From Candidatus Baldrarchaeota archaeon (GTDB taxonomy: Archaea > Asgardarchaeota > Baldrarchaeia > Baldrarchaeales > DXJG01): a DNA stretch of 32,000 nt. The position numbers were made by a program, and so were the translations under genes. A model generated the notes under the pieces. It saw only the letters and a list, made by a program, of their open reading frames with translations, was not told the origin of the DNA and did no database searches. Each line of letters starts with the position of its first letter. Positions within the stretch are counted from its first letter, which is position 1. Below, piece by piece: positions 5,313 through 28,232 of the stretch. The DNA lies in the NCBI GenBank assembly GCA_019056805.1, contig DXJG01000001.1, forward strand, positions 120,001 to 152,000, read 5' to 3'.

Positions 5313-5663
5313 TTAAGTAACTTGTTTTCCATACATTTTCCAAAGTTCTCTCATTATGAAGTCTCCTTTAGATTTAACCTCTTCCCACGCTTCCTCTATT
5401 TCTAAACTATATACGTTTTTTTGTAAACATTCGTTATATTTTTCTATGAATTTTATCACAGCTTTCACTACTGGTTGCTGTAAAATTTCTAGTTTTTCTT
5501 TGCCTACATCTATACTACTTATCAAAGCTCCCTCAATGTACTTTTTATTACCAAGAATATCCATCAACACAAGTTTTCCTTCTTCATAGTAGACTCTGAC
5601 TATATCTTCTGCTACTTTGCTTTCCCGGTCTCGGTCTTTTATAAAAACTTTAAATTCACACAT
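5313..5663 (-). CDS. cooT: CooT-family nickel-binding protein with a helical C-terminal extension
   Basis: The ATG at 5663 gives MCEFKVFI...EDIVRV...LVLMDILGNKKYIEG, with the Met-Cys2 N-terminus typical of CooT; GGTGG SD-like sequence upstream. The ORF track start (5672) is probably too far upstream. Confidence 0.7.
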   Translation of the reverse strand: MCEFKVFIKDRDRESKVAEDIVRVYYEEGKLVLMDILGNKKYIEGALISSIDVGKEKLEILQQPVVKAVIKFIEKYNECLQKNVYSLEIEEAWEEVKSKGDFIMRELWKMYGKQVT

Positions 5664-5827
5664 TTTTTCCACCAGTTTTCAAACAATCTTGAGACTTATA
5701 AATGTAAATAGTTTAATTAGTATTGGAAGCGGGCTGATTTATAAGAGGAATTAGATATTATGAAACATTCTACAAATTTTTAAGTTTTGTTTTAGGAAAC
5801 CCTAAAAATTAAACAAATCAACAATGA

Positions 5828-6727
5828 TTGTTGACATTGCTAACAACTAATAAAAGGGGTTTGGAAATTCGCAAAAAATACATGGTAATCACAATCAAAA
5901 CGAAGTATTGGAAGCCTGGTACAAACTACATAGGTGTGATAGTGGATGTTCTAAAGGACAAAATTCGAAATGGCGATATAATTGTATTATCCGAGAAAGC
6001 ATTATCCACAGCTATGGGAAATCTCGTTGACGAATCTAAAGTAAAACCAAGTTCTCTGGCAAAATTTCTCGCTAATTTTTGGAATAGAATAATTTGGGGC
6101 TACATACTAGGGACACTCTGCCATCTTAAACCTGAAACAATCATCAAGCTACGAAACTACCCAGTTCGATACGGTGCAGCTCACAAACAATTAGCATTGT
6201 TTTACGGCGGATTCTTTCAAGCATTAAGACATTATTCTGAAGGAGGCATCGATGTTAGCAATATACCCTACACCTATGCATGCCTACCTTTAAAAAACCC
6301 TATAGACATTGCAAAAAGAATCTTAAAGGCCATAACACATGCTACTAGGAAAAAAGTAACAGTTATGATCGTTGATGGTGACAGTACCTTCTCTTTTAGA
6401 AATATTCACTTAGCTCCAAGAAAAGTTCCTGTTAAAGGACTTATACACTTCGGTGGATTCCTAACGTTTGTTATAGGTAGGTTCTTTAAAATGAAGAAAA
6501 CAGCCACCCCCATAGCTATTGTAGGTCGTCCATTACACATAAATGACGCCTTAGAAATAGCCGAACTAGCAGATAAAGCCAGGGGTCATGGAGCAGGCAT
6601 GACAGCCTGGGACATGGCAAAAAGATTTAAAGTCGGATTAACTCAAGTAACATGGGAAATGCTTAATAAAATAAAACATAAACCGATAACGATAATTAGA
6701 AGAATAAATCATGTCGTGGTGACTTGA
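5828..6727 (+). CDS. F420-0:gamma-glutamyl ligase-like (CofE-fold) protein, divergent paralog; start uncertain (5828/5861/5882)
   Basis: GDIIVLSEKALSTAMG, GGIDVSN, VMIVDGDS and TPIAIV motifs resemble the CofE/F420_ligase fold but differ from canonical CofE. Confidence 0.65.
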   Translation: MLTLLTTNKRGLEIRKKYMVITIKTKYWKPGTNYIGVIVDVLKDKIRNGDIIVLSEKALSTAMGNLVDESKVKPSSLAKFLANFWNRIIWGYILGTLCHLKPETIIKLRNYPVRYGAAHKQLALFYGGFFQALRHYSEGGIDVSNIPYTYACLPLKNPIDIAKRILKAITHATRKKVTVMIVDGDSTFSFRNIHLAPRKVPVKGLIHFGGFLTFVIGRFFKMKKTATPIAIVGRPLHINDALEIAELADKARGHGAGMTAWDMAKRFKVGLTQVTWEMLNKIKHKPITIIRRINHVVVT

Positions 6728-6775
6728 AAAATTTTAAAATTAAGAAGGATATAAGTACAAGAGGAGGGATACAGC

Positions 6776-7672
6776 TTGTTATATATTGGTGATGTAGAAA
6801 TTGAAGACACCTTTGCTGAAATGTTTCCTATGTGGGCTTCTAGGATACTTATAACAGCCGACAATGAGAAATGGGCGTTGACTGCGGCTCAAGCGGCAAC
6901 AGGATTTGGAACTTCCATAATAATGTCTCCTGCAGAGGCCGGTATAGAGAGGCTTGTTTCACCTAATGAAACACCAGATGGGAGAGTTGGAGCTATAATT
7001 CAAATATATCACCGAACGAGATTGGAACTTAAAATTCAAATGATATTTAGAATAGGTCAATGTGTTCTTACATGTCCAACTACGGCAGCTTTTGATGCTC
7101 TGCCGGAGGCAAAACGCAAGGTGAAAATTGGTCCAGCTCTAAGAAAATTTGGAGATGGGTTTGAAGTAAGAGATAAATTAAACGGTAGAGACATTTGGCG
7201 AATACCCGTCATGGAAGGTGAATTTATTATTGAGAACCTTTTTGGAGTTAAACCAGCAATTGCTGGTGGAAACTTTCTCATCTTAGCTAAAGATAAGGCA
7301 ACGGGTCTTAAAGCAGCTGAAGAAGCTGTTGAAGCGATTAAAAAGAGCAAAGCAAAAGTAGTACTTACATTTCCAGGAGGAATTTGTAGATCAGGATCAA
7401 AAGTTGGATCACTTAAATACAAATTACCAGCATCGACAAATCATCTATTCTGTCCAACATTAAAGGATAAAGTGCCAGAAACAGCATTACCAAAGGATGT
7501 TAATAGCGTATATGAACTAGTTATAAACGGCTTAACAGTAGAAGACATCAAAGAAGCCATGGCAGTCGGAGTAAAAGCTGCTGCAAGTGTCGAAGGAGTT
7601 AAGAAAATTACAGCAGCAAACTATGGAGGAAAACTTGGACCATACAAAATATACCTAAAAGACATCATTTAA
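6776..7672 (+). CDS. ftr: Formylmethanofuran:H4MPT formyltransferase
   Basis: VEIEDTFAEMF, EAGIE, ETPDGR, RIGQCVLTCPTTA, GGNF, GGICRSGSKVGS, ASTNHLFCPTL, ITAANYGGKLG; GGAGGG SD upstream of a TTG start. Confidence 0.96.
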   Translation: MLYIGDVEIEDTFAEMFPMWASRILITADNEKWALTAAQAATGFGTSIIMSPAEAGIERLVSPNETPDGRVGAIIQIYHRTRLELKIQMIFRIGQCVLTCPTTAAFDALPEAKRKVKIGPALRKFGDGFEVRDKLNGRDIWRIPVMEGEFIIENLFGVKPAIAGGNFLILAKDKATGLKAAEEAVEAIKKSKAKVVLTFPGGICRSGSKVGSLKYKLPASTNHLFCPTLKDKVPETALPKDVNSVYELVINGLTVEDIKEAMAVGVKAAASVEGVKKITAANYGGKLGPYKIYLKDII

Positions 7673-7680
7673 ATCATGTC

Positions 7681-8736
7681 TCAGCTATCTAACAACCTCA
7701 AATAATCTGAACCATTAGCTTCAGGAGAGCCTATAAGTATTCGATAGTAGCTAGTTCCCACAGTCCTATTAATAATATTCTCCAATTTTCCCCTTACTTC
7801 AATTTTTTCTCCCTCTCTAGCTATATCACTATAAAGCCCCTCGTAAGAAACAACTTCCTTTATGTTACCATTAATTTTTGGGCCTTCCACAATTTTTACT
7901 TGACTAATCTCGTATATTGCTGGGTTAAATATCGAATTTTCTGCATTTACAACAGTAGCTCTAACTTTTACTATACCAACCGGCCGAAACACGAAATCAT
8001 CATATGAACTGGAAATTTCTTCTTCCACCTTTACTGGGTGTATAGAAAACAAAGTCCCATCAAAAATTCCTCGATTCCACTTTCTTTCACATATCTTTCT
8101 TGCATCATCTAATTCAAGACGATAAAGACTGGATACTTTAACACACCATTCCTTAAATTCAACTTTCGAAAATTTTCTTACATTAGAGGCAGAATCTCGA
8201 TAAAGATTTAACAACGTCTCCTTAACCTTGTAACTGTTGTCTTTTCCGTAAATTATTAAGTCTATGTCAGAGAATTCCACTCTATGAATATTAATAAGAA
8301 TCGACCCTGTAATCCCGAAAGAATTCAAAGGAACATTACTTTCCTTTGAAATCAACTTAACTAGTTTTATAACCTTTGATTCAAGTTCATCCTGCGCAGA
8401 ATTTTCTAAAATTTCTCTTAATCTTTCCTCAGGTTTAAAATGCTTTTCGATATAATCAGTCGGTACAAAAGACATCATTATATTCAGATTTTTATCCTTA
8501 TACAAATATTGCGGATACTTTTCCTTCAACAGGCTGAAAGTTTCCTTGAGCGAAGGTATTGTATAATGTCTTAATACACGTTTAAATTTCTCAACTCCAC
8601 GACCCCAAGAACCAGTTTCATCTGGTACATACTTTAAATATGCAATAATCTTGTCGTTAGGATGAATGTTGCCAACAACTACAAAAAATAAACCATCTTT
8701 AGTCAATAAATAATCTCTATCTCTAAATCCTCTCAT
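7681..8736 (-). CDS. Predicted Pol-beta-type nucleotidyltransferase (COG1665-like), paralog 2
   Basis: GITGSILINIHRVEFSDIDLIIYG (GS...DxD) motif, N-terminal HP...IIAYLKYVPD and a C-terminal OB-like region. Confidence 0.75.
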   Translation of the reverse strand: MRGFRDRDYLLTKDGLFFVVVGNIHPNDKIIAYLKYVPDETGSWGRGVEKFKRVLRHYTIPSLKETFSLLKEKYPQYLYKDKNLNIMMSFVPTDYIEKHFKPEERLREILENSAQDELESKVIKLVKLISKESNVPLNSFGITGSILINIHRVEFSDIDLIIYGKDNSYKVKETLLNLYRDSASNVRKFSKVEFKEWCVKVSSLYRLELDDARKICERKWNRGIFDGTLFSIHPVKVEEEISSSYDDFVFRPVGIVKVRATVVNAENSIFNPAIYEISQVKIVEGPKINGNIKEVVSYEGLYSDIAREGEKIEVRGKLENIINRTVGTSYYRILIGSPEANGSDYLRLLDS

Positions 8737-9767
8737 TATTCATCCTCCACCACAACCATGAAGTCCTTGGGATTTCCACCGATAATCAACCTATAATAAT
8801 AAAAATCATTTGATTGAAGGACTTTCTCGATAGTTCCTTGAACAACAACCTTTTCGCCTACACGAGCTTGTTCGCAAAATCTACCTCTAAAAGACACAAT
8901 TTCCTTTAGTGGGGCAACAGGATTTCCCTGTAAAAAAACAATACTATCTATAAGATATCTACATGGCGTAAAGATAGCTTCCTCATCATTGGTAATCCGT
9001 GCTTTTATCTTTGCCCTTCCTATAGGAACATAAATCTTTTCACCATACTTCTCTGTAATTTCACTCCAATCCTTAACAAATCTAATAAAATAATCTCTTC
9101 CTTTAAATTCTCCCTGCATAACTTTTCTTATTTCTGTTTTAATGAACTGTTCAAAAGAAACCTCAGTATCCCTGGCCCTAAATTTGTAAAGTTTTTTTAA
9201 ACCATTTTCATCGTAACTTTTAATGGGAGTTTCGGAAGAAACAAGCCACCTTAAAGCTTCATAGATCCTTACACAATTTGCGGTCCCGTAGACGACTACG
9301 TCTATATCCGAGTTTTCGTCATGTAAGTCTACAAGAATAGAACCTGAGATTCCAATTTTCTCCCAAGAAATTCCAGATTTTTCCTTCAACAGTTTGATAA
9401 ATTCGAAAGCATCTTTTTCTATCCCGGTGAGATTTTCGGAACGGTGTTTCATCTCGTGTAACTTTTTCTCAGGTTTATAATGCTTATATATACTTTCGGT
9501 AGGTACACCTTCTAATAACTGGTTAAAAACAGGGTCAAAGTAAAGATATTTAGGATAATTTTCTAATAAATACTTATTTCTTTCATGAAGAGAATAAATT
9601 TTCCTATAAAATCGTTTTCCTCTTTTTCTTTTTCCTTTCTCGTCTGGAGTATAACGAACATATGCTATTACACGATCTGGAGGATGAATTAAACCCTTTA
9701 CATCAAATATTAATCCCTCAAAGCTTTCGACAAAGTCTCCTTCACGTGCCTTCACTGTTTTTCTCAT
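8736..9767 (-). CDS. Predicted Pol-beta-type nucleotidyltransferase (COG1665-like), paralog 1
   Basis: GISGSILVDLHDENSDIDVVVYG motif; homologous along its length to the downstream gene; TAATG stop/start overlap. Confidence 0.75.
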   Translation of the reverse strand: MRKTVKAREGDFVESFEGLIFDVKGLIHPPDRVIAYVRYTPDEKGKRKRGKRFYRKIYSLHERNKYLLENYPKYLYFDPVFNQLLEGVPTESIYKHYKPEKKLHEMKHRSENLTGIEKDAFEFIKLLKEKSGISWEKIGISGSILVDLHDENSDIDVVVYGTANCVRIYEALRWLVSSETPIKSYDENGLKKLYKFRARDTEVSFEQFIKTEIRKVMQGEFKGRDYFIRFVKDWSEITEKYGEKIYVPIGRAKIKARITNDEEAIFTPCRYLIDSIVFLQGNPVAPLKEIVSFRGRFCEQARVGEKVVVQGTIEKVLQSNDFYYYRLIIGGNPKDFMVVVEDE

Positions 9768-9967
9768 GCCTTAGAACGCACCTATAAGTATGTGTATAAA
9801 AGTTGCGAGTCCTAAGTCTACTTAATCTTTGTGTTTTTAGTGATTTCATAAATAGCTCATAGATATCAGTAACTTAGATTTTCATCGAACTTAATGTTTC
9901 GTCGCTGCGATGTTATTTAAATTTAAATTATAATTTATAAAAAAATAAACGGTCTTGATGACGGGAC

Positions 9968-10702
9968 TTACGATCTGGGAAGAGGCCATCCGAGGTTTTT
10001 TAATGCTTCAACTAACGACATAGCTATTATTGCCGCAAATATTGCTTGGAACAACCGTATTATTGGATATACTAAGGGGCTAACAACAAATAGATATCTT
10101 ACAGTGTCGATTGTTAATCCAAAGATCCCGTTATAAACAATAGGAATAGCAAATATAACACATCCAAGTGCACTGTCGGCCTGATTTCCAATAAATGCCA
10201 AGAAGAAGTAGAAAACGAAGCTCCATACATGGGACAATTCATATTTTTTCATGAGATAAATTGTCGGGAAAATCATTAATAATGCGATTACTTTATCCCA
10301 GATGACAAGTGCTGCAACGTAATAGTACTGTATAATCGGTTGACTTGGAGGAAGAAATATGAAAGCTGCAATCACGGCTGCCATAACAGCAAATCCCTTT
10401 TTCCATTGACCCGTATAAACAAGACCAACAATAAATGCATTAATAGCTGGATTAAATAAAAACGGCATACCAAAGGGACTCCCCGAGCCAGGAGGCAGAA
10501 GCCATGCTAGAATAGCGCCCAAAAGAGCAGCCAAGGCACCAAGATATGGACCAAGAATAATGCCAAAAACTGAGGCCATAGCGGCTTCAAGTTGTATTGT
10601 TAACGTTGGTAAGCCTATGATAGGTAAACCAGGTAAAAGCGAGAAAATAGCATAGAGTGCAGCGAAAGATGCGGTTAGAGCAGTTTCTTTTGATGATACC
10701 AT
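9968..10702 (-). CDS. ECF transporter S-component-like integral membrane protein
   Basis: Strongly hydrophobic; N-terminal ALTASFAALYAIFS and GIILGPYLGALAALLG helix pattern typical of ECF S-components; GGTGA SD upstream. Confidence 0.7.
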   Translation of the reverse strand: MVSSKETALTASFAALYAIFSLLPGLPIIGLPTLTIQLEAAMASVFGIILGPYLGALAALLGAILAWLLPPGSGSPFGMPFLFNPAINAFIVGLVYTGQWKKGFAVMAAVIAAFIFLPPSQPIIQYYYVAALVIWDKVIALLMIFPTIYLMKKYELSHVWSFVFYFFLAFIGNQADSALGCVIFAIPIVYNGIFGLTIDTVRYLFVVSPLVYPIIRLFQAIFAAIIAMSLVEALKNLGWPLPRS

Positions 10703-10726
10703 ATTATCACCATCTTGTGTAATTTA

Positions 10727-10742
10727 CTACATAAGTATGTAG
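10727..10742. promoter_or_regulatory. Palindromic operator candidate CTACATA-AG-TATGTAG
   Basis: Perfect 7-bp arms with a 2-nt spacer, about 25 nt downstream of a minus-strand TATA box, i.e. across the expected transcription start of the ECF gene. Confidence 0.5.
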
Positions 10743-10760
10743 AGATTTACAGAACACTCA

Positions 10761-10780
10761 TATAAATACTTTGTGCACAA
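10761..10780 (-). promoter_or_regulatory. BRE/TATA promoter candidate for the ECF S-component gene
   Basis: Minus strand reads TTGTGCACAAAGTATTTATA: AAAGTA BRE-like plus TTTATA; includes a perfect 10-bp palindrome TTGTGCACAA (10771-10780). Confidence 0.45.
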
Positions 10781-11105
10781 CTAAAGAATCCCTAATTACA
10801 ATAAGACTAATTTAGCAGAACTAGTTGATTTAAAGAGACAGTATCTAATAAGAGATAGGAAACAAGTTGTATTTCCATGAGTTTTGTTATTTTAAATCCG
10901 AAGTAAATTAAAATTTCTATTTTTCAATTTTAATCGAGTTTCAAAGAAAAGTCAAGGCTCAACCATCATTTTTCTTACACAAAACCGGAAATAGACATAA
11001 TGCTAAAATGCACTTTTCAAAGCTTTTAGTATAGTGGTGTTTCCCAAGTTTTAATAAGTCTATTTTAATTCAAATATTGTTGACATTTTATGGAGAGTGT
11101 TGCTC

Positions 11106-12530
11106 ATGGAAGAATTATGGCCTTGGATTCTCCCTCTACCAAAGAAAACCAAAGAACAGTATGAGATCTTGTTATCAGTTTTCAAATCCAAGGTTTCACT
11201 AGATATTCTACTTAATATGGATATCAATAAGAAAAACTATCAAAAAGAACTAGTGGAGAAAATTCCTCATTCTAACAAATCAATAATAAATGCATTGAAA
11301 AAATTTGTTCGCGCAGGAATATTGGAACAAAAAACCGAGAAAATTAAAGTAAAAGATAAAGAAGTCTGGGTAAAATATTATACACTTACTTTTTTAGGCA
11401 AATATCTTAAATTGCTTTTAACACCTATAGATAAACTATCTTCTAAGGATGTAAAGGAAACAGTTAAAGAACTTTTTTATTTTTATGCTAAAAGCATAGC
11501 AAAACTATGCTTTGACTTTAATATAAGCCATGAAGTTTTTCATAACATTCTAAATAAATTATATCTGACCGAAGTTGTAAAAAGAGTTAGAGAATCAAGG
11601 AAAAGTGTTAAAGTAGTCGTATTTGGATCAACCGCAATTGACATAATAATACCCACCAGTAATGCCCCGATTGGACACGATCAAACCGTAACCATACGGG
11701 GATACATAAGTGATGTTGGTGGTTCAGCTACCAATGTAGCTATAGCACTTAGTAGACTAGGTGTTCCAACAGCGTTTTCTGGGAAGATTGGTGGAGACTA
11801 CGGAGGAAGAATTGCTGTTGAAAGAATGTTAGATGAAAACGTGGATATCTCATCTATTGTAATCGGCGAAGAACTTCAAACTCCACAATCAATAGTACTC
11901 GTGGGTAAAAATGGTGTAAAGAAGATACTTGTTCTCTTAGGGAATAATCCAGCTTTATCACTGTCATCCCCAGCAGAGGTGGACTGGTCCTTGGTAAATA
12001 GTTGTGAAATTGTCTATATTGGTGAGGTATTTGTAGAAGTAGCTTCTGCAATAGCTTCTTATGCGAAAAGCATGGGAAAATGGATAGTGTATAGACCTAT
12101 AACACCGTTCATAAAAATGGGATTTAAAAAATTAGAACCAATAATTAGAAGTTCAAATACCATAATTTTAAATGAAATCAACTGGAATGGATTAAAAAGA
12201 TCAACACCCGATGTAAATGCCCCCGCAGACCTATTAAATTTAGGTCCCGAGGAAGTTATCATAACAAAATCTAACAAAGGTGTAGAAGTTCATACGAAAG
12301 ATGAAATTTTTGAATTTCCTTCCTTTAAAGTCAAGGTTGTAGATACAACGGGAGCAGGAGATGCTTTCGCTGCTGGTTATATTAAAGCTCGGTTAGATGG
12401 AAAATCTTTACGAGAAGCTGTAAAATACGCATTAGCAGTTGCAGCATTGACAACCACAAAACTTGGAGTAAGAGTAGTTCTCCCAAAGGTTGAGGAAGTT
12501 GAAGAATTCATCAAAAAAGCTACATTTTAA
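11106..12530 (+). CDS. N-terminal winged-helix domain fused to a PfkB/ribokinase-family kinase
   Basis: Residues ~15-105 show a wHTH pattern (YQKELVEKIPHSNKSIINALKKFVRAGIL...YYTLTFLG); C-terminal GGSATNVAIALSRLG and VVDTTGAGDAFAAG PfkB signatures. ATG at 11106 follows GGAGAG; a GTG at 11097 is an alternative start. Confidence 0.85.
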   Translation: MEELWPWILPLPKKTKEQYEILLSVFKSKVSLDILLNMDINKKNYQKELVEKIPHSNKSIINALKKFVRAGILEQKTEKIKVKDKEVWVKYYTLTFLGKYLKLLLTPIDKLSSKDVKETVKELFYFYAKSIAKLCFDFNISHEVFHNILNKLYLTEVVKRVRESRKSVKVVVFGSTAIDIIIPTSNAPIGHDQTVTIRGYISDVGGSATNVAIALSRLGVPTAFSGKIGGDYGGRIAVERMLDENVDISSIVIGEELQTPQSIVLVGKNGVKKILVLLGNNPALSLSSPAEVDWSLVNSCEIVYIGEVFVEVASAIASYAKSMGKWIVYRPITPFIKMGFKKLEPIIRSSNTIILNEINWNGLKRSTPDVNAPADLLNLGPEEVIITKSNKGVEVHTKDEIFEFPSFKVKVVDTTGAGDAFAAGYIKARLDGKSLREAVKYALAVAALTTTKLGVRVVLPKVEEVEEFIKKATF

Positions 12531-12597
12531 TGCTCACTAAGTTTTACATTCAATAATAGTTAACAATAAAAATAAAATAAATTTTGAGAGTTCAAAA

Positions 12598-13593
12598 TTA
12601 TTCCTTGAAATGTGGTATTATTTCCTTGCTTATTAGGTCTATGGCTTCTCTTACGTTTGGTCCTATAGGTGATCCTACAACAAATTGCGAAATTCCTAGT
12701 TTAATCAATTCATTTATACGTTCGATACATGTTTCTGGTGTTCCGCTTATTGAAAATGCTTCAATCATTTCTGATGTCACTTTTGAGAATGCCTCACCCC
12801 AGTTTCCTGCTTCTAAAGCTTTCTTAATAGCCATGGCATCCTCTACACTAATTCCATGTTTTTCTAGTACAGGCTCTGGGCTACCAGAAACTATGAATGC
12901 AACTACTGGTGTTGCAGCCTTAATAGCTTTTTTCTCCTTTTCATGTATGGAGAAGGATGTATACGCAGCTACATCAATATCGGCTAGTTTTCTGTTTGCT
13001 GCTTCTGCTCCAGTTTTTATGTACTTTAGAGCATCCCCGATATCTTTTGGGTGTGAAGCATTAATCAGAACCCCGTCACCCATACTAGCTGCTAATTGAA
13101 GCATTTTAGGTCCTTGTGCACCTATATATATTGGAATTGTTCCTTTCGGTTTGAAATTGAACTTTGCCTTTTGAACACTGAATATTTTTCCAGCAAACTT
13201 TACTTTTCCTGTAGTGGTTAAAGATCTAATTATCTCTACACTTTCTCTGATAGCAGTAAGTGGTTTTTTAATTTCTATACCCAAGAGACTTAATGTAGTT
13301 TTGTCCCCAGCACCGATACCGAGGGTGACCCTGTTTGGAGCTATTTCAGATAGGGATGCAACTGATTGTGCAGTTACGACAGGGTTTATAAGATAGGGGT
13401 TTGTGACACCTGGACCTAATTTTATTTTGTTTGTATGTAAGGCTATGGTTGTTAAGGCTACGTAGACATTCCTATTATTGAAGTGGTCTGTTATCCATAC
13501 ATAATCAAAACCTGCTTTTTCAGCCTGAATTGTATAAAATGTGGTTCTCCAATACAAATCCATAGGAACGAATTCTATTCCAAACTTGACCAT
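12598..13593 (-). CDS. mer: F420-dependent methylene-H4MPT reductase
   Basis: KFGIEFVP, WITDHFNNRNVY, LGPGVTNPY, LGIGAGD, IGAQGPKML, VGSPIGP. Confidence 0.95.
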   Translation of the reverse strand: MVKFGIEFVPMDLYWRTTFYTIQAEKAGFDYVWITDHFNNRNVYVALTTIALHTNKIKLGPGVTNPYLINPVVTAQSVASLSEIAPNRVTLGIGAGDKTTLSLLGIEIKKPLTAIRESVEIIRSLTTTGKVKFAGKIFSVQKAKFNFKPKGTIPIYIGAQGPKMLQLAASMGDGVLINASHPKDIGDALKYIKTGAEAANRKLADIDVAAYTSFSIHEKEKKAIKAATPVVAFIVSGSPEPVLEKHGISVEDAMAIKKALEAGNWGEAFSKVTSEMIEAFSISGTPETCIERINELIKLGISQFVVGSPIGPNVREAIDLISKEIIPHFKE

Positions 13594-13620
13594 AACTCAT
13601 CCCCTCTTATCATTTTTACT

Positions 13621-13887
13621 TTACTTTTTCAACTCCTTAGCAACGTCCCCTAGACCAGCGTTACTCAATAGTTCTACAGTCTGTTCCGGTTCGATGGTAT
13701 ATGCTGCTTCGAGCAATTTCTGAAAACCTTCATCAGATTCAAGTTTGTCATATTGCCAGTAATGAAGAAGCAAATTAGCTGTGCTGCTTGGAAGCTTAGA
13801 AGCATTGCCAGATCGCAATAATATGTCAATTAAAGGTGTAACTAGGCCTTTTCTTTTTTCTAAATCTATTTTTTTCACAAGTTCCAT
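13621..13887 (-). CDS. Small hypothetical helical protein between mtd and mer
   Basis: 88-aa ORF filling the gap exactly (16 nt after the mtd stop, 27 nt before mer), GAGAGGG SD-like sequence upstream, protein-like composition. Confidence 0.75.
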   Translation of the reverse strand: MELVKKIDLEKRKGLVTPLIDILLRSGNASKLPSSTANLLLHYWQYDKLESDEGFQKLLEAAYTIEPEQTVELLSNAGLGDVAKELKK

Positions 13888-13903
13888 TTCGAACCCTCTC
13901 CGA

Positions 13904-14752
13904 TTACTCAGGTTTTTTAGGTTTTTCGATGAGTTTTCTTTTACTTAAAATTTCTCCAGTTTTGTGATGGGGCATTCTCAATAAGTAATCTCCATATTTT
14001 TCTATTTCTCGAGCTTCGTCAGCAAGCATAGCAGCTATTCGAATCATTTCATGGGCAGCAGCTACAATTGGAACATATCTTTCCATTTCTTTTATCATAA
14101 AGCAGCCTTCCACGGTAAGACTTGCAGCACTGCGAGCTATTTCATGAGCAGCCATAGCTTTTGCCAACGCATATGGATTCGAGAATCCTGCAGCCTTTAC
14201 AGCATTTTCTTTTTCAATGACTATTCTTGGAAGCTCAGGTTTTTCTCCTTTCTTTATTTGATCAATTACTCTGCCGATTTCTCTGTACACTATAGAAAAT
14301 ACACCAGTTACTGAAAGAACTTTAATTAAATCAGCGTTAAAGATAGCCATTTCTATTGGATCAAGAAATTCTCGTCTGGCACCGATCATAGCATCAGCGG
14401 CAATGATAAAATAACCCATATTTTTCTCTTCAATATCTTTCACCGCTTTTTTCCCAGGTTGATCACTGATAACTATTGTAGGAATATTTGATTGGGCTAA
14501 AATTTCTCTAGCCTTTTTGGGTCCAGGTAGTGCAGCATTTGGACTAATCACGATGATAAGATCCGGTTTGAAGTCTAAGATTTTTTTAGCAACTTCTTCT
14601 GCTTGCGCTGGACCCATTTTAGCTCCGCTTCCAACTACACGCACATCTAAATCTTCTCTATCAGCTCTTTCATCAAATAGAAACTCGATAAGAGGTGCCG
14701 TGCCAATATTACCGCATTTTACAACTCCTATTTTTATTATTCGCCCTTCCAT
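13904..14752 (-). CDS. mtd: F420-dependent methylene-H4MPT dehydrogenase
   Basis: KIGVVKCGNIG, DERADRED, GSGAKM, SPNAALPGP, MIGARREFLDPIEMAIFNAD, AAAHE; likely start is the ATG at 14752 after GGGGG (the ORF track start 14839 is AT-rich upstream sequence). Confidence 0.95.
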   Translation of the reverse strand: MEGRIIKIGVVKCGNIGTAPLIEFLFDERADREDLDVRVVGSGAKMGPAQAEEVAKKILDFKPDLIIVISPNAALPGPKKAREILAQSNIPTIVISDQPGKKAVKDIEEKNMGYFIIAADAMIGARREFLDPIEMAIFNADLIKVLSVTGVFSIVYREIGRVIDQIKKGEKPELPRIVIEKENAVKAAGFSNPYALAKAMAAHEIARSAASLTVEGCFMIKEMERYVPIVAAAHEMIRIAAMLADEAREIEKYGDYLLRMPHHKTGEILSKRKLIEKPKKPE

Positions 14753-14810
14753 TATTTTTCCCCCATTATTTTCTTCCAGTAAAATATTCAACAAACATAA
14801 TTTAACTGTT

Positions 14811-14818
14811 ATATATAA
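14811..14818 (-). promoter_or_regulatory. TATA box candidate for mtd-hyp-mer
   Basis: TTATATAT on the minus strand about 60 nt upstream of the mtd ATG, in the divergent intergenic region. Confidence 0.35.
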
Positions 14819-15048
14819 GTTTACTAGAATAACATTCATTACATAATTTTCGATATTTTTATGTTCACTTTACGTTTTAACACGTTTTTAATATCATTTT
14901 TTAACCTAAATGATAATAATTCGGTGGTTTAACACTAGAGAAGAGAAGTTACTATTATTGTTAATTTAGCATTTTTCAACTCTAGCTAAAATCTCAAAAA
15001 GGTTAAAAGCTAATATTATCAACATAACTCTGAGATTGAATCACCATC

Positions 15049-15056
15049 TTTATAAT
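15049..15056 (+). promoter_or_regulatory. TATA box candidate for fwdDBAC-mch
   Basis: TTTATAAT about 28 nt upstream of the fwdD ATG; GAGAGGG SD-like sequence between them. Confidence 0.35.
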
Positions 15057-15083
15057 TTATTAACAGAGTAGAGAGGGCCAAAT

Positions 15084-15479
15084 ATGATTAAAGTAATTTT
15101 AATAACGGGTAGGAGTTTGGATCAAGGAATCTCTAAGGAGTATGGTAAATTTTCTAAAACATACATGGAAAAAGTTGCTGTATGTGAGCTAGACGCAGAA
15201 GATATTAAAACGCTTGGAATAAATCCGGGTCAGAATGTTAAAGTGAAAACAAAATATGGAGAGGTCGTTGTTAAAGCTGTTGAATCTACTCAAGCTCCGC
15301 ACAAGGGTATAGCTTTTATACCCTATGGTCCTTGGGCCAGCAGTGTAATGCCTTCAACTACGGAAAGTACTGGCATGCCTTCACTTAAGGGAATAGAAGC
15401 AACGATAGAACCAGCTTTGGGTGAAGAAATTTTAGATCCTAAAAAACTCATAAAAACGATTGTGGGGAGAGAGCCTTGA
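15084..15479 (+). CDS. fwdD: Formylmethanofuran dehydrogenase subunit D
   Basis: LITGRSLDQG, VKVKTKYGEVVV, FIPYGPWA, TGMPSLKG; overlaps the fwdB start (TTGA). Confidence 0.93.
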   Translation: MIKVILITGRSLDQGISKEYGKFSKTYMEKVAVCELDAEDIKTLGINPGQNVKVKTKYGEVVVKAVESTQAPHKGIAFIPYGPWASSVMPSTTESTGMPSLKGIEATIEPALGEEILDPKKLIKTIVGREP

Positions 15480-16759
15480 AAACCATAAGTAATGTTGTAT
15501 GTCCGTTCTGTGGAAGTCTATGTGATGATATAGAAGTAGATGTAGAAAACGGTCAAGTGACAAAAGTAAGGCGAGGATGCGCAATAAGTATAGCAAAATT
15601 TACAAAATACGGTGAAGAGAGGATATATAAGCCGAGAATAGATGGAAAAGAAGCATCATTGGAGGAAGCTATAGATAAAGCTGTTGAAATACTTGCAAAT
15701 GCAAAATACCCAATTCTATACGGTTGGAGCTGTACCTCAACAGAAGCAATAAACGTAGGTATAGAAATTGCAGAATTAATAGGCGGGGTAATGGACAATA
15801 CAGCATCTGTATGTCACGGACCCACTATAATAGGGGAGCAAGATGCCGGAATATCCACATGTACATTAGGTCAGGTGAAACATAGAGCAGACCTTATAAT
15901 ATATTGGGGATGCAATCCGGCACATGCTCATCCAAGACATATGGCTAGATACTCTGCAGCAAGTAAAGGAAAATTTGTAAAAGGCAGAAATGAAAGAAAA
16001 GTGATCGTAGTTGATGTAAGGAAAACTCGCACAGCTAAAGCAGCTGATATATTTATTCAAGTTGAACCAAACTCAGATTACGAATTGTTAACAGCTCTAA
16101 GATGGGCAGTAAAAAACGGAGAATTAGAACAGCCGAAAATTGCAGGAATACCCGCGGAGAAAATAGAAGAAATAGCAGATATGTTAATTTCATGCCGATT
16201 TGGAGCATTGTTCTTTGGATTAGGATTAACCATGTCAGCAGGGAAAGCGAGAAACATAGAAGCAGCTGTATCCCTAGTTAGAGAATTAAATAATTACACA
16301 AAATTTGTAATGATGCCTATGAGAGGACATTTTAACGTTACCGGCGCCAACGAGGTAATGGCATGGATAACAGGTTATCCCTTTGCAGTCGACTTTAGTA
16401 GAGGTTACCCGTTCTATAACCCTGGAGATACAACTGTTGTTGATATACTTACACGAGGAGATTGTGACGCAGCACTAATAGTAGCCTCAGACCCCGTTTC
16501 AGGCTTTCCAACCGAGGCAGTAAGAAATCTTGCAAAGATCCCCGTAATAACAATTGACCCTCACGAGACACCAACAACTATGATATCAAAAGTGGTTATA
16601 CCAACAGCTTTGGTTGGAATAGAAGCGGAAGGATCAGCCTATAGGATGGATGCAGTACCTTTGAGACTTAAGAAACTTGTTGATCCACCGCCAAATATTT
16701 TATCGGATGAAGAAGTTCTAAAAATGATTCTTAAAAAGTTAAAAGAGAGGGTGGGATAA
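15476..16759 (+). CDS. fwdB: Formylmethanofuran dehydrogenase subunit B (Mo/W-pterin, Cys-ligated)
   Basis: CPFCGSLCDD, DNTASVCHGP, WGCNPAHAHPRH, MPMRGHFNVTG, EGSAYRMD. Confidence 0.96.
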   Translation: MKTISNVVCPFCGSLCDDIEVDVENGQVTKVRRGCAISIAKFTKYGEERIYKPRIDGKEASLEEAIDKAVEILANAKYPILYGWSCTSTEAINVGIEIAELIGGVMDNTASVCHGPTIIGEQDAGISTCTLGQVKHRADLIIYWGCNPAHAHPRHMARYSAASKGKFVKGRNERKVIVVDVRKTRTAKAADIFIQVEPNSDYELLTALRWAVKNGELEQPKIAGIPAEKIEEIADMLISCRFGALFFGLGLTMSAGKARNIEAAVSLVRELNNYTKFVMMPMRGHFNVTGANEVMAWITGYPFAVDFSRGYPFYNPGDTTVVDILTRGDCDAALIVASDPVSGFPTEAVRNLAKIPVITIDPHETPTTMISKVVIPTALVGIEAEGSAYRMDAVPLRLKKLVDPPPNILSDEEVLKMILKKLKERVG

Positions 16760-18451
16760 TTGGAGATACTCATAAAAAACGGATATGTTTATGACCCGAT
16801 AAACAAGATAGACGGCGAAAAAATGGACATAGCAGTCAAAGACGGAAAGATTGTAGAGTCAGTCGGTTCAAACGCCAAAGTAATAGATGCATCAAATATG
16901 TTAGTAATGCCGGGAGGAGTAGACATACATTCCCATATAGCAGGTTCAAAAGTGAATTCAGGACGAATACTAAGACCAGAAGATCACTATAAAGATGTAG
17001 AGCCAAGAACCACAGTAACAAGATCAGGAGTCGGTTACACGGTTCCTTCATCATATACAATAGGTTATCGATATGCAAAACTTGGATATACAACTGTAAT
17101 AGAGGCAGCATCACCTCCACTAAAAACAAGACATACACACGAAGAACTAAATGATATACCATTAATTGACAAAACCTGCTACCTTGTGCTTGATAATAAT
17201 TGGATTGTTCTAGATTATTTAAGCCAAGGAGAAATTGATAAATGTGCGGCGTTCATAGCATGGATTCTAAAAGCATTAAAAGGCTATGCTATAAAAATCG
17301 TTAATCCAGGAGGAGTAGAACTCTGGGGATGGGGGAGAAACGTAGAAAGCTTGGATGACCAAGTACCCCCCTTCAACATAACTCCACGAGAGATCGTTAG
17401 AGGATTATGTAAAATAAACAAAATACTCAATCTACCTCATACAATACATCTTCATACAAACAATCTCGGAAAACCTGGAAATTATCGCACAACCATAGAA
17501 ACTATGGATGCTGTAAAGGACTTAGCAGATGGAAAACCAAACATACATGTAACACATGTACAGTTTTGCGGATATGGTGGAGATACATGGATTACACTGA
17601 GGTCTGGAGCACCAGAAATAGCAAAATACGTAAATAATCATCCACATGTCACAATAGACCTAGGACAAGTAGTTTTCGGAGAAGCCACAACCATGACAGG
17701 TGACGGACCATTCCAGTTCATATTACAAAGTCTAACTGGAAACAAGTGGAAAAATGCAGATGTAGAGGCAGAGGGGAGTGCAGGAATTGTACCGTACAAA
17801 TTTAAACGTAAAAACTTCGTAAATGCAATACAGTGGACCATAGGGCTGGAATTAGCTCTTCTAATAAAAGATCCTTGGAGAGTGTTCTTAACAACAGATC
17901 ATCCAAATGCAGGACCATTTACGGAATATCCAAGGGTAATAGCTTGGTTAATGAGCACAAAAGCACGAGAAAAGACAATGGAAAGGATAAACAAAAGAGC
18001 CAAAAAACGGAGCGTATTACCTAGCGTGGACAGAGAATATACTTTCTATGAAATTGCCATAATAACAAGAGCTGCAACGGCAAAAGCTCTAAATCTAACA
18101 AATAAGGGACATTTAGGTGTAGGAGCAGACGCAGATATAGCAATATACAATATAAATCCGATGGAAGTAAATCCATCAAAAGAATACAAAAAAGTTAGAA
18201 AGGCGCTTAGAAGGGCAGCATATACCATAAAGGGAGGAGAGATCATAGTTAAGGATGGGGAAATTGTTAAATCATTTGTAGGGGAGACGTTCTGGGTAAA
18301 ACCAACAATGCCTGAAGAACTAGAGAAGGAAATTTTAAGAGAAGTTGCAGAGAAGTTCAAAGAATACTACACGGTGTCGCTTGAAAACTACATCATAGGA
18401 GAACATGAATTAGCCCGCTCAAGGTCAATAACAGTAAATACTTCCCTTTAG
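16760..18451 (+). CDS. fwdA: Formylmethanofuran dehydrogenase subunit A (binuclear amidohydrolase)
   Basis: GGVDIHSHIAG, AIKIVNPGG, HLHTNNLG, HVTHVQF, TTDHPNAGPF, GHLGVGADADIA. Confidence 0.97.
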   Translation: MEILIKNGYVYDPINKIDGEKMDIAVKDGKIVESVGSNAKVIDASNMLVMPGGVDIHSHIAGSKVNSGRILRPEDHYKDVEPRTTVTRSGVGYTVPSSYTIGYRYAKLGYTTVIEAASPPLKTRHTHEELNDIPLIDKTCYLVLDNNWIVLDYLSQGEIDKCAAFIAWILKALKGYAIKIVNPGGVELWGWGRNVESLDDQVPPFNITPREIVRGLCKINKILNLPHTIHLHTNNLGKPGNYRTTIETMDAVKDLADGKPNIHVTHVQFCGYGGDTWITLRSGAPEIAKYVNNHPHVTIDLGQVVFGEATTMTGDGPFQFILQSLTGNKWKNADVEAEGSAGIVPYKFKRKNFVNAIQWTIGLELALLIKDPWRVFLTTDHPNAGPFTEYPRVIAWLMSTKAREKTMERINKRAKKRSVLPSVDREYTFYEIAIITRAATAKALNLTNKGHLGVGADADIAIYNINPMEVNPSKEYKKVRKALRRAAYTIKGGEIIVKDGEIVKSFVGETFWVKPTMPEELEKEILREVAEKFKEYYTVSLENYIIGEHELARSRSITVNTSL

Positions 18452-18453
18452 AG

Positions 18454-19290
18454 GTGAAAGAATTGGGTGAAATAATATTAAAACCAAAAGTAGCATTTAA
18501 AGTACCGATAATTGCTGAGACGATAACTCCAGACAATTTTGCAGGAAAATCTATCAAGGAAATAGAAGATTTGGAAGCATGGGAAGGAAATAGGAAAACA
18601 ACTCTCGGAGAACTATTTGAAATCACTGGAGCTCCTGGAGAAACACCGAAAGACACAAAGATAATTATCGAAGGCGACGTAAAAAAGGTTAAAAAAATAG
18701 GCTGTAAAATGACAGATGGAGAAATTATAATTAAAGGATCCGTAGGAATGTATTTAGGCGAGGAGATGAAAGGCGGTAAAATAACCGTAGAGGGGGATGC
18801 AGATTCCTGGATAGGAACAAGAATGAAGGGAGGACAAATAGAAGTCAAAGGAAACGCTGGAGATTACATCGGAGCTCCCTACCGTGGAGACACAAAGGGT
18901 ATGAAAAAAGGCACCATAATAATACATGGAAATGCTGGAAATGAAGTAGGATGTTGGATGAGAGGGGGAACAATAATAGTAAAAGGAAACACGGGACTTT
19001 TCCCCGGAATACATATGAAGAAAGGTACAATACTAATTGAAGGGGATTGTGCAGGAAGATGCGGAGCCATGATGAAAGGCGGTAAAATAGCAGTTTTAGG
19101 CTATGTTCCTTCAATTCTTCCAAGTTTTACTTTCGAAGAAATCAAAAAATCCTTTAAGATCAAAGGGGAGAAAATTAAAGGACCATTCTACGTTTTTACG
19201 GGCGATCTAAATGAAAACGGAGCAGGAAGACTGCATGTTTCGGTAGAGAAAAATAAACATCTTCAATTCTATGAAAAGTTTCTGGAATGA
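18454..19290 (+). CDS. fwdC: Formylmethanofuran dehydrogenase subunit C
   Basis: GNRKTTLGELF followed by beta-helix repeats (MKGGKITVEGDA, MRGGTIIVKGN, GAMMKGG). Confidence 0.95.
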   Translation: MKELGEIILKPKVAFKVPIIAETITPDNFAGKSIKEIEDLEAWEGNRKTTLGELFEITGAPGETPKDTKIIIEGDVKKVKKIGCKMTDGEIIIKGSVGMYLGEEMKGGKITVEGDADSWIGTRMKGGQIEVKGNAGDYIGAPYRGDTKGMKKGTIIIHGNAGNEVGCWMRGGTIIVKGNTGLFPGIHMKKGTILIEGDCAGRCGAMMKGGKIAVLGYVPSILPSFTFEEIKKSFKIKGEKIKGPFYVFTGDLNENGAGRLHVSVEKNKHLQFYEKFLE

Positions 19291-19309
19291 CATGTAAGGA
19301 GGAATTAAA

Positions 19310-20278
19310 ATGCCTAAATTAAGCGTTAATGTGGAAGCGAAAAAAATTGTTGAAAAAATGATTGAAAATAGTAATTTGCTTAACATAAAAGTCGAAAAAA
19401 CACCATCGGGAGCAACAATTATAGATGCAGGAGTCGAAGTTAAAGGAGGGTTACTCGCCGGTAAATTCGTAACTGACATCTGTTTAGGAGGACTAGGAGA
19501 AACCCAACTGACCCAAGTTCCTTATGGAGATGTAGAGCTTCCCTCAATCTTTGTTGCTACAGATCATCCAGCTGTATCAACACTTGGTTCGCAGTTTGCA
19601 GGCTGGAGAATAAAAGTAGGCAAATATTTCGGTATGGGGTCTGGACCAGCTAGAGCTTTATCCTTAAAACCAAAAAAACTTTACGAAGAAATCGAATATG
19701 AAGACGAAGCAGATGTGGCTGTAATAGTTTTGGAATCTGATGAAAAACCAACAGAAGAGGCTCTAAAATATATTGCAGAAGAATGCAAAGTATCGATAGA
19801 AAATGTTTACGCCGTAGTTACACCAACTTCTAGTATAGCCGGATCCGTTCAAATATCTGGCCGGGTCGTTGAAACAGGTATACACAAAATTGCCGAAGTA
19901 GGTTTCGATCCAAAGAAGATTTTATACGCTTCCGGCTATGCACCAATAGCTCCCGTACATCCAAAATCCATAAAAGCTATGGGAAGAACAAACGATATGA
20001 TCCTCTACGGTGGGGTCGTTAAATTAATTGTCGAATACGATGACGATGAAAAACTAAAGGAGTACGTAGCAAAAGTTCCATCATGTACATCAAGAGACTA
20101 TGGTCGGCCCTTCTATGACATATTTAAAGCAGCTGAATTTGATTTCTATAAAATCAGCCCAGACTTGTTTGCACCAGCAAAAATAATCGTAAACAATGTA
20201 AAAACAGGGTCAACGTTTGTTGCAGGATACATTAACACAGAAGTTATACAACAATCAATAAAATTACAAAAACTATAA
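19310..20278 (+). CDS. mch: Methenyl-H4MPT cyclohydrolase
   Basis: IDAGV, CLGGLG, TDHPAVSTLGSQFAGW, GSGPARAL, GSVQISGRVVETG, MGRTNDMILYGG, DLFAPA; GGAGG SD. Confidence 0.96.
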   Translation: MPKLSVNVEAKKIVEKMIENSNLLNIKVEKTPSGATIIDAGVEVKGGLLAGKFVTDICLGGLGETQLTQVPYGDVELPSIFVATDHPAVSTLGSQFAGWRIKVGKYFGMGSGPARALSLKPKKLYEEIEYEDEADVAVIVLESDEKPTEEALKYIAEECKVSIENVYAVVTPTSSIAGSVQISGRVVETGIHKIAEVGFDPKKILYASGYAPIAPVHPKSIKAMGRTNDMILYGGVVKLIVEYDDDEKLKEYVAKVPSCTSRDYGRPFYDIFKAAEFDFYKISPDLFAPAKIIVNNVKTGSTFVAGYINTEVIQQSIKLQKL

Positions 20279-20445
20279 CCCATTTCTTTTATTTGTTTTC
20301 TAAATTTAAAATTGAAGTACACTACAGATTAGATTATTAAATACTATTTTTACTTAGAACTTGACTTGACATAGATCAAGTAACATGTAAAATAGGAACT
20401 AAAATAAGTGTTAGAAGTATGCTATTTTCTGGAGGCACTAACAAC

Positions 20446-21327
20446 ATGGTAAAGATCGGAATACTAACTAGGAACCCAGAAGCTTGGTGTTCAATGAATC
20501 TCATAAAAGCTTTTGAAAAACTAGGAGCAGAACCTGTATGTCTTCGATTTTCTAGACTTGTTGCAAAAGTAGGATCTAAACCGGTGGTTTATCACGAAGA
20601 CATTAATGTACTTGAAGAACTAGGAGCTTTGGTTATCCGCCCCATAGGTAGAGGGTCATTAGATGAATGTATATTCAGAATGGACATTTTACATAGACTT
20701 ACCCGACTGGGTCTCCCAGTAATAAATCATCCCTCGGCAATAGAAAAATGCATAGACAAATATTACGCTTTAACAATTTTAGAAGAACATGGAATCCCAG
20801 TACCAAAAACGGTTGTAACAGAAAGCGCCGAAGAAGCATTAAAAGCCTTTCATGAACTAGGAGGAGACGTAGTAATAAAACCACTATTTGGTTCAAGAGG
20901 AGTTGGTATAACAAGAATTTCGGATCCAGAAATAGCAACAAGAATATTTAGAGCTCTACAATTCACACATAACGTCTTGTACATACAGGAGTTTATACCA
21001 CATGGCACAAGAGATATCAGAGCGTTTGTAATAAACGAAGAAGTCGTAGCATCCATGTACAGAGAAGGAAGAAGCTGGAAAACAAATGTAGCGCAAGGAG
21101 CAGTACCAAAAATGTTAAAATTAGTGGGAGAAGCTGAAGAACTGGCTATAAAAGCTACAAAGGTAGTGGGGTGTGAAATAGCTGGAGTAGATATTTTAGA
21201 AGGTCCTAATGGACTCTACATAGTGGAGATAAACAGTCAGCCCGGATGGCGTGGAATACAAACAGTGACAAAAGTAAACATTGCAGAAGCAATAGCAAAA
21301 TATGTAATTGAAAGAGCAAAAAGGTAA
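20446..21327 (+). CDS. RimK/MptN (Orf5/MyfB-like) ATP-grasp alpha-L-glutamate ligase
   Basis: DKYY, VIKPLFGSRGVG, YIQEFI, DIRAFV, WKTNVAQG, AGVDILE, EINSQPGW; GGAGG 10 nt upstream of the ATG at 20446. Confidence 0.85.
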   Translation: MVKIGILTRNPEAWCSMNLIKAFEKLGAEPVCLRFSRLVAKVGSKPVVYHEDINVLEELGALVIRPIGRGSLDECIFRMDILHRLTRLGLPVINHPSAIEKCIDKYYALTILEEHGIPVPKTVVTESAEEALKAFHELGGDVVIKPLFGSRGVGITRISDPEIATRIFRALQFTHNVLYIQEFIPHGTRDIRAFVINEEVVASMYREGRSWKTNVAQGAVPKMLKLVGEAEELAIKATKVVGCEIAGVDILEGPNGLYIVEINSQPGWRGIQTVTKVNIAEAIAKYVIERAKR

Positions 21328-21330
21328 CTG

Positions 21331-22290
21331 GTGGCATCAATGCCAAAAGATACTGAAGAGATTATTAATAAAGTAGTGCAGTCAGCACAATTGGCAATGA
21401 TTCTTGAAGTAAGTGCTTATCCAAAACCTGGAAATGTACATAGAACGGCAGACTTTAAAGATACAACATACGAACATTTCTTGGCTTCGGCAATAGCGGT
21501 ATTACCTCAACTGCAAAAAGCAGCTAAAATGGGAGTTAAAGTTGCCCTATCTGAAATATCTCCTTCTCAAGCTGAGATAGGTAACATTATAAAAGAGGGG
21601 GTCATTGAGACAGCAAAATGGCAGAAAGGAGGAAATACAAATTTAGGGGTTCTCATACTTATGATTCCACTGATTATGGCAGAAACATACACACTTACGA
21701 AAAATCAAGAGTTAAAAAAACTTAGAAAAAATATTAAGCTATTTACTGAGGCAACAACACCTACTGACGCAATAAACTTGTACGAAGCCATAAAAATTGC
21801 AAAACCAGGAGGATTAGGAAAAACTAACTACCTAGATGTTACAGATCCAAAATCAACCAAGCAAATTATAAATCAGAAAATATCATTGTATAAAATTTTT
21901 GAAAAGTCAGCAAGCTACGATAAAATAGCCGAGGAATGGATTACAAATTATAAAATAACTTTTGAAATTGGGGCACCGTATTTACAAAGAGTGTATAAAG
22001 AAACTGGTAACACAAATATAGCGATAGTGCATACTTTTCTAAAAATTCTATCTACAATACCAGATACGTTAATTGCTAGGAAAACAAATTTCACTATGGC
22101 CCGAAAAATTTCTGAAAAGGCAAAACAAATTTTAGAACTAGGAGGCTTAACAACTGAAAGAGGAACAAAACTTCTATGGGAGTTCGATAAAGAATTAAGA
22201 AAGGAAGGTAACAAACTTAACCCGGGTACAACAGCGGACTTAACGGCATCAAGTCTCATGATTACAATATTTAACGGCTTCAAACCATAA
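21331..22290 (+). CDS. citG: CitG-family triphosphoribosyl-dephospho-CoA synthase-like protein (Orf7-like)
   Basis: LEVSAYPKPGNVHR, NTNLG, PDTLIARK, NPGTTADLTAS. Confidence 0.85.
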   Translation: MASMPKDTEEIINKVVQSAQLAMILEVSAYPKPGNVHRTADFKDTTYEHFLASAIAVLPQLQKAAKMGVKVALSEISPSQAEIGNIIKEGVIETAKWQKGGNTNLGVLILMIPLIMAETYTLTKNQELKKLRKNIKLFTEATTPTDAINLYEAIKIAKPGGLGKTNYLDVTDPKSTKQIINQKISLYKIFEKSASYDKIAEEWITNYKITFEIGAPYLQRVYKETGNTNIAIVHTFLKILSTIPDTLIARKTNFTMARKISEKAKQILELGGLTTERGTKLLWEFDKELRKEGNKLNPGTTADLTASSLMITIFNGFKP

Positions 22291-27287: not shown

Positions 27288-27617
27288 TTATAAAAGTTGC
27301 ACTGAAAGTTGATTCGGAGTTCTTTTTACTATCTCGATCTTTCCTCCAGGAGCTATTATTGTGAGGGAGGTGACATTTTCCCTACCTTGCAGTCTATTTG
27401 GACCATTAAAGGAGATAATATCTACTCCAACGAATCTTAACGGATCTATTTCTCTCATAGTTTCCTTTAATAGTTCCAATTGTTCTTCCGGAGATAATCC
27501 CTCTTCCAATACTATCATTACGTTGTTTCTCACAAGTCTTAGTATCATTTGTATTTTTTCTCTTGTTGTAAGATATTTTGTAGCGTTTTTAGAAATGAAA
27601 TTTATTTCCATGACCAT
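27288..27617 (-). CDS. oapB: DUF2073-family protein (OapB/ArvB-like)
   Basis: EKIQMILRLVRNNVMIVLEEGLSPEEQLELLKETMREID...FVGVDI...LTIIAP; co-directional immediately downstream of the GTPase. Confidence 0.8.
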   Translation of the reverse strand: MVMEINFISKNATKYLTTREKIQMILRLVRNNVMIVLEEGLSPEEQLELLKETMREIDPLRFVGVDIISFNGPNRLQGRENVTSLTIIAPGGKIEIVKRTPNQLSVQLL

Positions 27618-27623
27618 TTCCCC

Positions 27624-28232
27624 TTATGCAAGTTTTGCTAAAGTTTCATACAGTTTTTCGATGTTTTGTCCTGTTAATGCCGAAATTGGAATTACTTTAT
27701 GGTTCGGAAAGGTTTCTTTCACTAGATGTGGCCTAGACTCCGCTAGATCTATTTTGTTTGCCACAATAATTATTGGTATACCTTTTGCTTCCAAAGTTCC
27801 GATGAGCATTATATTAATTTGATCATAGGGTACTTTTGTTGAATCTACGACAGCAATTGCTACATCTACCTTGTTTAACCACTTTACAGCTTCTATTACT
27901 CCTTTCGTAGCTTCTTTTGCCCGTTGAATAGCCTCCTCTTCCGTTAAACCATATTTTACAAACTCTCGATAATCTATTTTTGTTGCCAAACCAGGCATAT
28001 CTAACATTGTTATTCGAAGTACTCTACCGTTTATATTTAAATGGAGTTTTTCCACTTTCTCTACGGCCCTAGTTTCATGCGGAATTTCCGAGATGATTCC
28101 TTGTGGCTGAGCGCCACAGTCCTTTGCTATTCTATTTGCTAGTGTAGTTTTTCCGACATTTGGAGCCCCGTAAATACCCAGTGTTAATTCTTTTTCCCTT
28201 TTTCTCCCAAATAACTTAAGAAGCCAACTCAA
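27624..28232 (-). CDS. oapA: Small Era-like GTP-binding protein (OapA/ArvA-like)
   Basis: G1 GAPNVGKT, G2 HETR, G3 DMPG, G4 NKID, G5 SAL; ATKIDY...F...G...EA..RAKEATKG signature of this family; short amphipathic N-terminus. Confidence 0.88.
   Translation of the reverse strand: MSWLLKLFGRKREKELTLGIYGAPNVGKTTLANRIAKDCGAQPQGIISEIPHETRAVEKVEKLHLNINGRVLRITMLDMPGLATKIDYREFVKYGLTEEEAIQRAKEATKGVIEAVKWLNKVDVAIAVVDSTKVPYDQINIMLIGTLEAKGIPIIIVANKIDLAESRPHLVKETFPNHKVIPISALTGQNIEKLYETLAKLA

Follow-up and report, generated by a model that had tools for sequence, protein, structure and literature searches.

A 32,000-nucleotide stretch of the genome of an Asgard archaeon (Candidatus Baldrarchaeota, contig DXJG01000001.1, positions 120,001 to 152,000; here the window) carries a gene for a CitG-like protein and two genes for paralogous nucleotidyltransferases (NTs), NT1 and NT2. 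The CitG-like protein and the NT family may together build the distal tail of methanopterin-type one-carbon (C1) carriers, a reading that, on arguments from sequence, stands about even. Its parts differ in strength: the CitG-like protein probably ribosylates the pterin-ribitol, and addition of the cap by the NT family is slightly favoured. Methanopterin is the one-carbon carrier of methanogens, methane oxidisers and many uncultured archaea, and several of its biosynthetic genes have been assigned since 2011. A genome analysis of that year listed three such genes and about seven as missing (PMC3087415). A literature search found no paper assigning the late tail steps, nor any on the NT family. 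By analogy, it is conceivable, at a little below an even chance, that the two proteins are the missing final enzymes of the methanopterin tail, and that the protein-tagging logic of CitG and CitX here builds a small-molecule cofactor.

The known pairs are CitG with CitX (citrate lyase) and MdcB with MdcG (malonate decarboxylase), the first enzyme of each also belonging to PF01874. Bacterial CitG acts on dephospho-CoA and displaces adenine from ATP; because the reaction proceeds with inversion, the product is an alpha-ribosyl triphosphate. In the proposal, as in these pairs, ATP donates a triphosphoribosyl group, and a hydroxyl then attacks its alpha-phosphate, with loss of pyrophosphate. The CitG-like protein would first transfer this group from ATP, with release of adenine, to the free terminal hydroxyl of the pterin-aminophenyl-ribitol, and the product, as with CitG on dephospho-CoA, would be an alpha-ribosyl 5-triphosphate. 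An NT-family enzyme would then bind this triphosphate as it would a nucleoside triphosphate, and a hydroxy acid (2-hydroxyglutarate in tetrahydromethanopterin, H4MPT) would attack the alpha-phosphate, releasing pyrophosphate. In lineages with CitG and without an NT, the cofactor would end in ribose. The acceptors of CitG/CitX are dephospho-CoA and a protein serine, whereas those proposed here are the pterin ribitol and a small hydroxy acid; the second enzyme is here a three-domain NT of 340 aa without detectable similarity to CitX. White's late H4MPT route reportedly runs through ribosylation by phosphoribosyl pyrophosphate, ATP-dependent formation of a triphosphate and condensation with hydroxyglutarate. 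The triphosphate intermediate and the pyrophosphate-releasing final condensation are common to both schemes, but ATP as ribosyl donor would merge two of the proposed steps and yield the alpha anomer by one inversion.

The CitG-like protein covers the whole PF01874 profile (E 1.7e-79, 268 bits against a cut-off of 27). Against the CitG and MdcB equivalog models it scores 67-76 bits where the cut-offs are 272-282, which places it outside the bona fide dephospho-CoA enzymes. Its nearest solved relative is 3h9p, a putative triphosphoribosyl-dephospho-CoA synthase (E 9e-22). Unlike the CitG and MdcB systems, the window has no visible lyase or carrier gene, as the earlier note had said: none of its open reading frames (ORFs) is recognisable as citrate lyase or malonate decarboxylase, in a search covering the window alone and not the whole genome. 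A predicted complex of the CitG-like protein with NT2 scores 0.20 against a mark of 0.32, and is counted neither for nor against.

The distribution of the NT family across genomes lends support to the proposed division of labour. The earlier note had made the proposal depend on the family being present in most H4MPT producers, and in those sampled (Methanobacteriota and Halobacteriota, with Methanococci and Methanopyri not knowingly included) it is widespread: a single full-length NT occurs in all 81 Methanobacteriota genomes, and an NT in 92 of the 100 Mtd-positive Halobacteriota. Methanothermobacter sp. K4 has one full-length copy (E 2e-92). Across 121 Halobacteriota genomes, NT and Mtd agree in 111 (both in 92, neither in 19) and are discordant in 10; the 19, which include Natronorubrum, mostly have genomes of haloarchaeal size. 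Profiling against pathway genes, also suggested in that note, shows the NT tracking both CitG and RFAP (ribofuranosylaminobenzene 5'-phosphate) synthase in Thermoproteota, where it is found in 47/47 CitG-positive genomes and 38/38 with a strong RFAP-synthase match, while 57 genomes lack both NT and CitG. Among the Asgard archaea, Mch and NT are concordant in 48 of 60 genomes. No NT was found in the 61 genomes of a further phylum, probably Thermoplasmatota, whose centre is without Mch.

Lineages that keep CitG alone are the most telling. All 41 Thermococci genomes encode CitG and none a full-length NT (0/41, profile sensitivity checked). Their modified folate retains the alpha-ribose and has N-acetylglucosamine in place of phosphate-hydroxyglutarate. 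According to Chistoserdova 2005, a CitG-like gene is said to be tied to the dephospho-H4MPT gene island, and this link to methylotroph H4MPT islands is old knowledge, not a new result. The proteobacterial islands (CitG-like gene orf7) have the order mch-rimK-citG, as in the window, and are without an NT, in keeping with a cofactor that has neither phosphate nor hydroxyglutarate; exactly these two groups are missing from the dephospho-H4MPT of M. extorquens (PMC8141765). The Azospirillum island contains mptG and mch-rimK-citG, and no NT was found on its replicon; nor is any of 36 mch-bearing replicons among the NT matches, the search having covered replicons and not whole proteobacterial genomes. 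Because Thermococci and the proteobacterial islands keep CitG without NT and cap, CitG appears to track the ribose and the NT the cap.

Pterin operons point in the same direction. Of 80 related loci, 56 have a citG gene no more than 6 kb from NT2; in some it sits immediately upstream, in others the two genes diverge, and chance proximity was rejected on the strength of this count and of the several arrangements. In Vulcanisaeta, the NT overlaps citG in a C1 island with mptE, ftr, fwd, mch, rimK, methanofuran genes and fae; in Metallosphaera, genes for NT, CitG and a probable phosphoesterase overlap. One Thermoproteota genome has the run mptE-mptH-mptA-NT2-NT1, and a second brings together NT1, NT2-citG-DUF447, mptE, a flavoprotein-ferredoxin gene, mptG and mptH. 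The NT is beside mptA, or one gene from it, in 5 of 10 Halobacteriota loci. A fusion of HPPK (FolK) with an NT (locus 5626-7143), followed by a flavoprotein and a pterin-binding gene, occurs in a genome that is probably bacterial by gene content and whose archaeal-type citG, mch and mptG lie on a different contig; its gene content suggests capped methanopterin in some bacteria.

NT1 and NT2 are 33% identical (E 9e-58) and belong to what we take to be a COG1665-like family. Their only Pfam match is a weak one to PF01909, and a model search gave no dedicated Pfam or NCBIfam model for the family. The G-x-x-GS and S-D-x-D motifs are invariant among 129 members, and a pseudogene reading was rejected on account of these motifs and the open frames. 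The predicted structure of NT2 (predicted local distance difference test 97) consists of an N-terminal beta domain, a Pol-beta nucleotidyltransferase core (residues 112-233) and a C-terminal OB fold (245-343). The core resembles TUT7 (Z 7.8) and PolX (Z 7.5). The hG[GS] and DxD motifs and the core fold place the NTs in the Pol-beta superfamily, together with PolX, TUTases and minimal nucleotidyltransferases, but the NTs add the beta and OB domains and have no solved sequence relative: searches of the PDB with the NT2 sequence and with the family profile returned nothing significant. Foldseek with the NT2 model gave no match at E <0.001, and PHROGs and PADLOC gave no family-level match.

The genome itself may depend on import. 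It holds four NT paralogues, with NT3 and NT4 about 12-14 kb before the window (contig 105671-107775, locus 5671-7775), after a CO dehydrogenase/acetyl-CoA synthase cluster. A FastTree tree assigns each of the four to a separate, well-supported clade that also contains Bathyarchaeia sequences, and the tree does not single out which of them is the orthologue of the methanogen enzyme. RFAP synthase, an MptH-type (DUF6513) gene and an AfpA-type flavoprotein were not found in the assembly, which is 91% complete, so the early pterin pathway seems to be missing; methanofuran genes are present. The energy-coupling factor (ECF) transporter S component encoded 200 bp upstream of NT2 matches the folate-family model TIGR04518 below its cut-off (E 1.8e-4), its gene turns up close to NT2 in 17 of the 80 related loci, and it is a candidate importer of a pterin precursor. 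As RFAP synthase was not found and the S component is weakly folate-like, this incomplete genome could plausibly rely on salvage, importing a pterin precursor and finishing it. The ECF S-NT2-NT1 run and the missing RFAP synthase suggest that the module probably finishes an imported precursor, with capping by at least one of the four old paralogues. A further 16 NT-positive Thermoproteota are also without a strong RFAP-synthase match, hinting at methanopterin salvage there.

Several observations weigh against the proposed route. The genomes counted are related and are not independent samples; Fisher values computed from them are too strong on that account and carry no weight here. Some Mch/Mtd-positive genomes have no NT detectable even with a broader profile (Ca. 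Odinarchaeum and its kin, two Asgard genomes that are 98-99% complete and about seven small Halobacteriota genomes), and these exceptions carry CitG where tested; their cofactor may be uncapped, or else they may be at odds with the model. In Ca. Odinarchaeum yellowstonii, where no NT was found, a TGA stands near the beginning of the citG frame (locus 1465-2358), whose first start codon comes late, and the CitG/NT module may be decaying. Haloarchaea keep CitG, and they are described as folate users (PMC8305020). The NT gene is unlinked in Methanobacteria and in some Asgard and Thermoprotei genomes; in Methanobacteria it lies by a homoserine dehydrogenase gene and is divergent from DUF366, queD-like and queE-like genes (locus 8113-11572). 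A full-length NT homologue is also encoded on Streptomyces plasmids, where its operon is an unrelated one (locus 6256-10458). That run includes a histidine phosphatase, a phosphotransferase and a methyltransferase, possibly a small-molecule pathway. An hhalign comparison of the NT family with E. coli CitX gave a probability of 0.3% (single-sequence template, MdcG left out), and the NT2 OB domain best matches ssDNA-binding proteins, with middling scores against SSB and RPA (Z about 8-9) and also against MCM domains; CitX and MdcG missing from the fold lists means little, since the OB domain filled them. The third catalytic position, placed by alignment and strand order and not measured on coordinates, is Asp in all 9 methanogen-type sequences inspected, Glu in NT4, Ser in NT1 and Phe in NT2. 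Because of this difference NT1 and NT2 are not plainly equivalent to the methanogen enzyme. Four paralogues are also more than one reaction needs. The two-step assignment made in the earlier note is supported in part: it has the backing of distribution, pterin operons and the missing NT where the cap is missing, while no similarity to CitX was detected. The window copies differ from the methanogen orthologues at the third residue, and the genome seems to be without the early pathway.

Among the alternatives, it is unlikely, if the least so, that the NTs work on the pterin tail by other chemistry: NT1 and NT2 might add different caps or serve to edit or recycle methanopterin fragments taken up from outside, or one of them might be a non-catalytic partner, with hydroxyglutarate added by a methanogen-type enzyme only (here perhaps NT4). 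The depth of the four clades agrees with this, the third residue being S, F, V/M and E respectively, as do the ECF S and PfkB genes recurring near NTs (PfkB in 33 of 80 related loci) and the lack of a strong RFAP-synthase match in this genome and the 16 Thermoproteota. However, NT1 and NT2 are closer to the methanogen orthologues (33-35% identity) than NT3 and NT4 are (25-26%), and the single strong citG-adjacent copies of Vulcanisaeta and Sulfolobales also have Ser at the third position.

A role on nucleic acid or protein (tailing of tRNA or other RNA, or AMPylation of C1 enzymes; the OB fold would bind the target, and the C1 linkage would reflect shared metabolism or regulation) is improbable. 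The SSB/RPA-like OB fold, the TUT7/PolX-like core and the queD/queE-like neighbours in Methanobacteria would fit it, but the Z values are modest and OB folds bind many ligands, and the pterin-kinase fusion, the citG overlap in several phyla and the adjacency to mptA favour small-molecule pterin chemistry. A toxin-antitoxin nucleotidyltransferase was rejected for protein size and because neither a toxin nor a HEPN partner was seen, and the PADLOC matches are marginal. Slightly less probable still is service to another cofactor (methanofuran or F420 tails) or to a phosphoribosyl-dephospho-CoA tag on a carrier protein. Established knowledge of bacterial CitG as a dephospho-CoA enzyme speaks for it, and the Vulcanisaeta NT-citG pair sits among methanofuran genes; yet Sulfolobus has CitG, NT and RFAP synthase without Mch, Proteobacteria make methylofuran without an NT, and no small carrier gene recurs beside the NT-citG pair in the loci read.

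If ribosylation by the CitG-like protein and capping by the NT family hold, NT presence would be a genomic predictor of capped versus uncapped cofactor across archaea and bacteria, and the common label "DNA polymerase subunit beta" for the family would be corrected. The occurrence of four paralogues together with an ECF importer in Bathyarchaeia and Asgard archaea would then be a sign of salvage and of cofactor variants yet to be described, and the NT would be a methanogen-enriched enzyme of use for methane mitigation. In tractable methanogens the gene is single-copy, which puts the question within reach of a test.

Coordinates of the genes discussed, numbered from the first nucleotide of the window
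Feature	Position	Strand	Remarks
CofE-like gamma-glutamyl ligase family protein	5828..6727	+	profile matches
ftr	6776..7672	+	convergent with NT1
NT1, three-domain Pol-beta-type nucleotidyltransferase	7681..8736	-	351 aa; third-carboxylate position Ser
NT2, NT1 paralogue	8736..9767	-	343 aa; third-carboxylate position Phe
ECF transporter S component	9968..10702	-	weak folate-family (FolT) match
Helix-turn-helix (HTH)-PfkB ribokinase-like fusion	11097..12530	+	profile matches
mtd, 88-aa ORF, mer (H4MPT-dependent C1 enzymes)	12598..14839	-	translations; order kept in one related locus
fwdD-B-A-C, formylmethanofuran dehydrogenase genes	15084..19290	+	translations; names from family knowledge
mch	19310..20278	+	first gene of mch-rimK-citG run
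RimK/MptN/MyfB-like ATP-grasp glutamate ligase	20419..21327	+	MptN model 293 bits vs cut-off 350
CitG-family protein, archaeal type	21331..22290	+	319 aa; candidate ATP-dependent triphosphoribosyl transferase for pterin ribitol

The earlier note had placed a CitG homologue at 21331-22290 and two intact NTs at 7681-9767 in one H4MPT gene cluster. The ORFs stand at those positions, and both NTs keep the two DxD aspartates; "intact" is too strong for a probable third carboxylate that is Ser in NT1 and Phe in NT2. C1-transfer genes do surround them, but the window is a C1-transfer island (ftr, mer, mtd, fwdDBAC, mch, rimK) and not a pterin-biosynthesis operon, and the NTs and citG lie on opposite strands 11.6 kb apart. 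NT1 and NT2 overlap by one base (stop/start), and citG, the last gene of its run, follows rimK after a gap of 3 bp. The closest relatives, at 73%, are in metagenome-assembled genomes labelled Baldrarchaeota and Odinarchaeota, one of them with identical gene order, and these matches place the host among the Asgard archaea. The CofE-like ligase adjoining ftr is a divergent member of its family, with three further paralogues elsewhere in the genome. At 27288-28741, a small GTPase gene and two short neighbours, one encoding a zinc-finger protein, are unrelated to CitG and the NTs.

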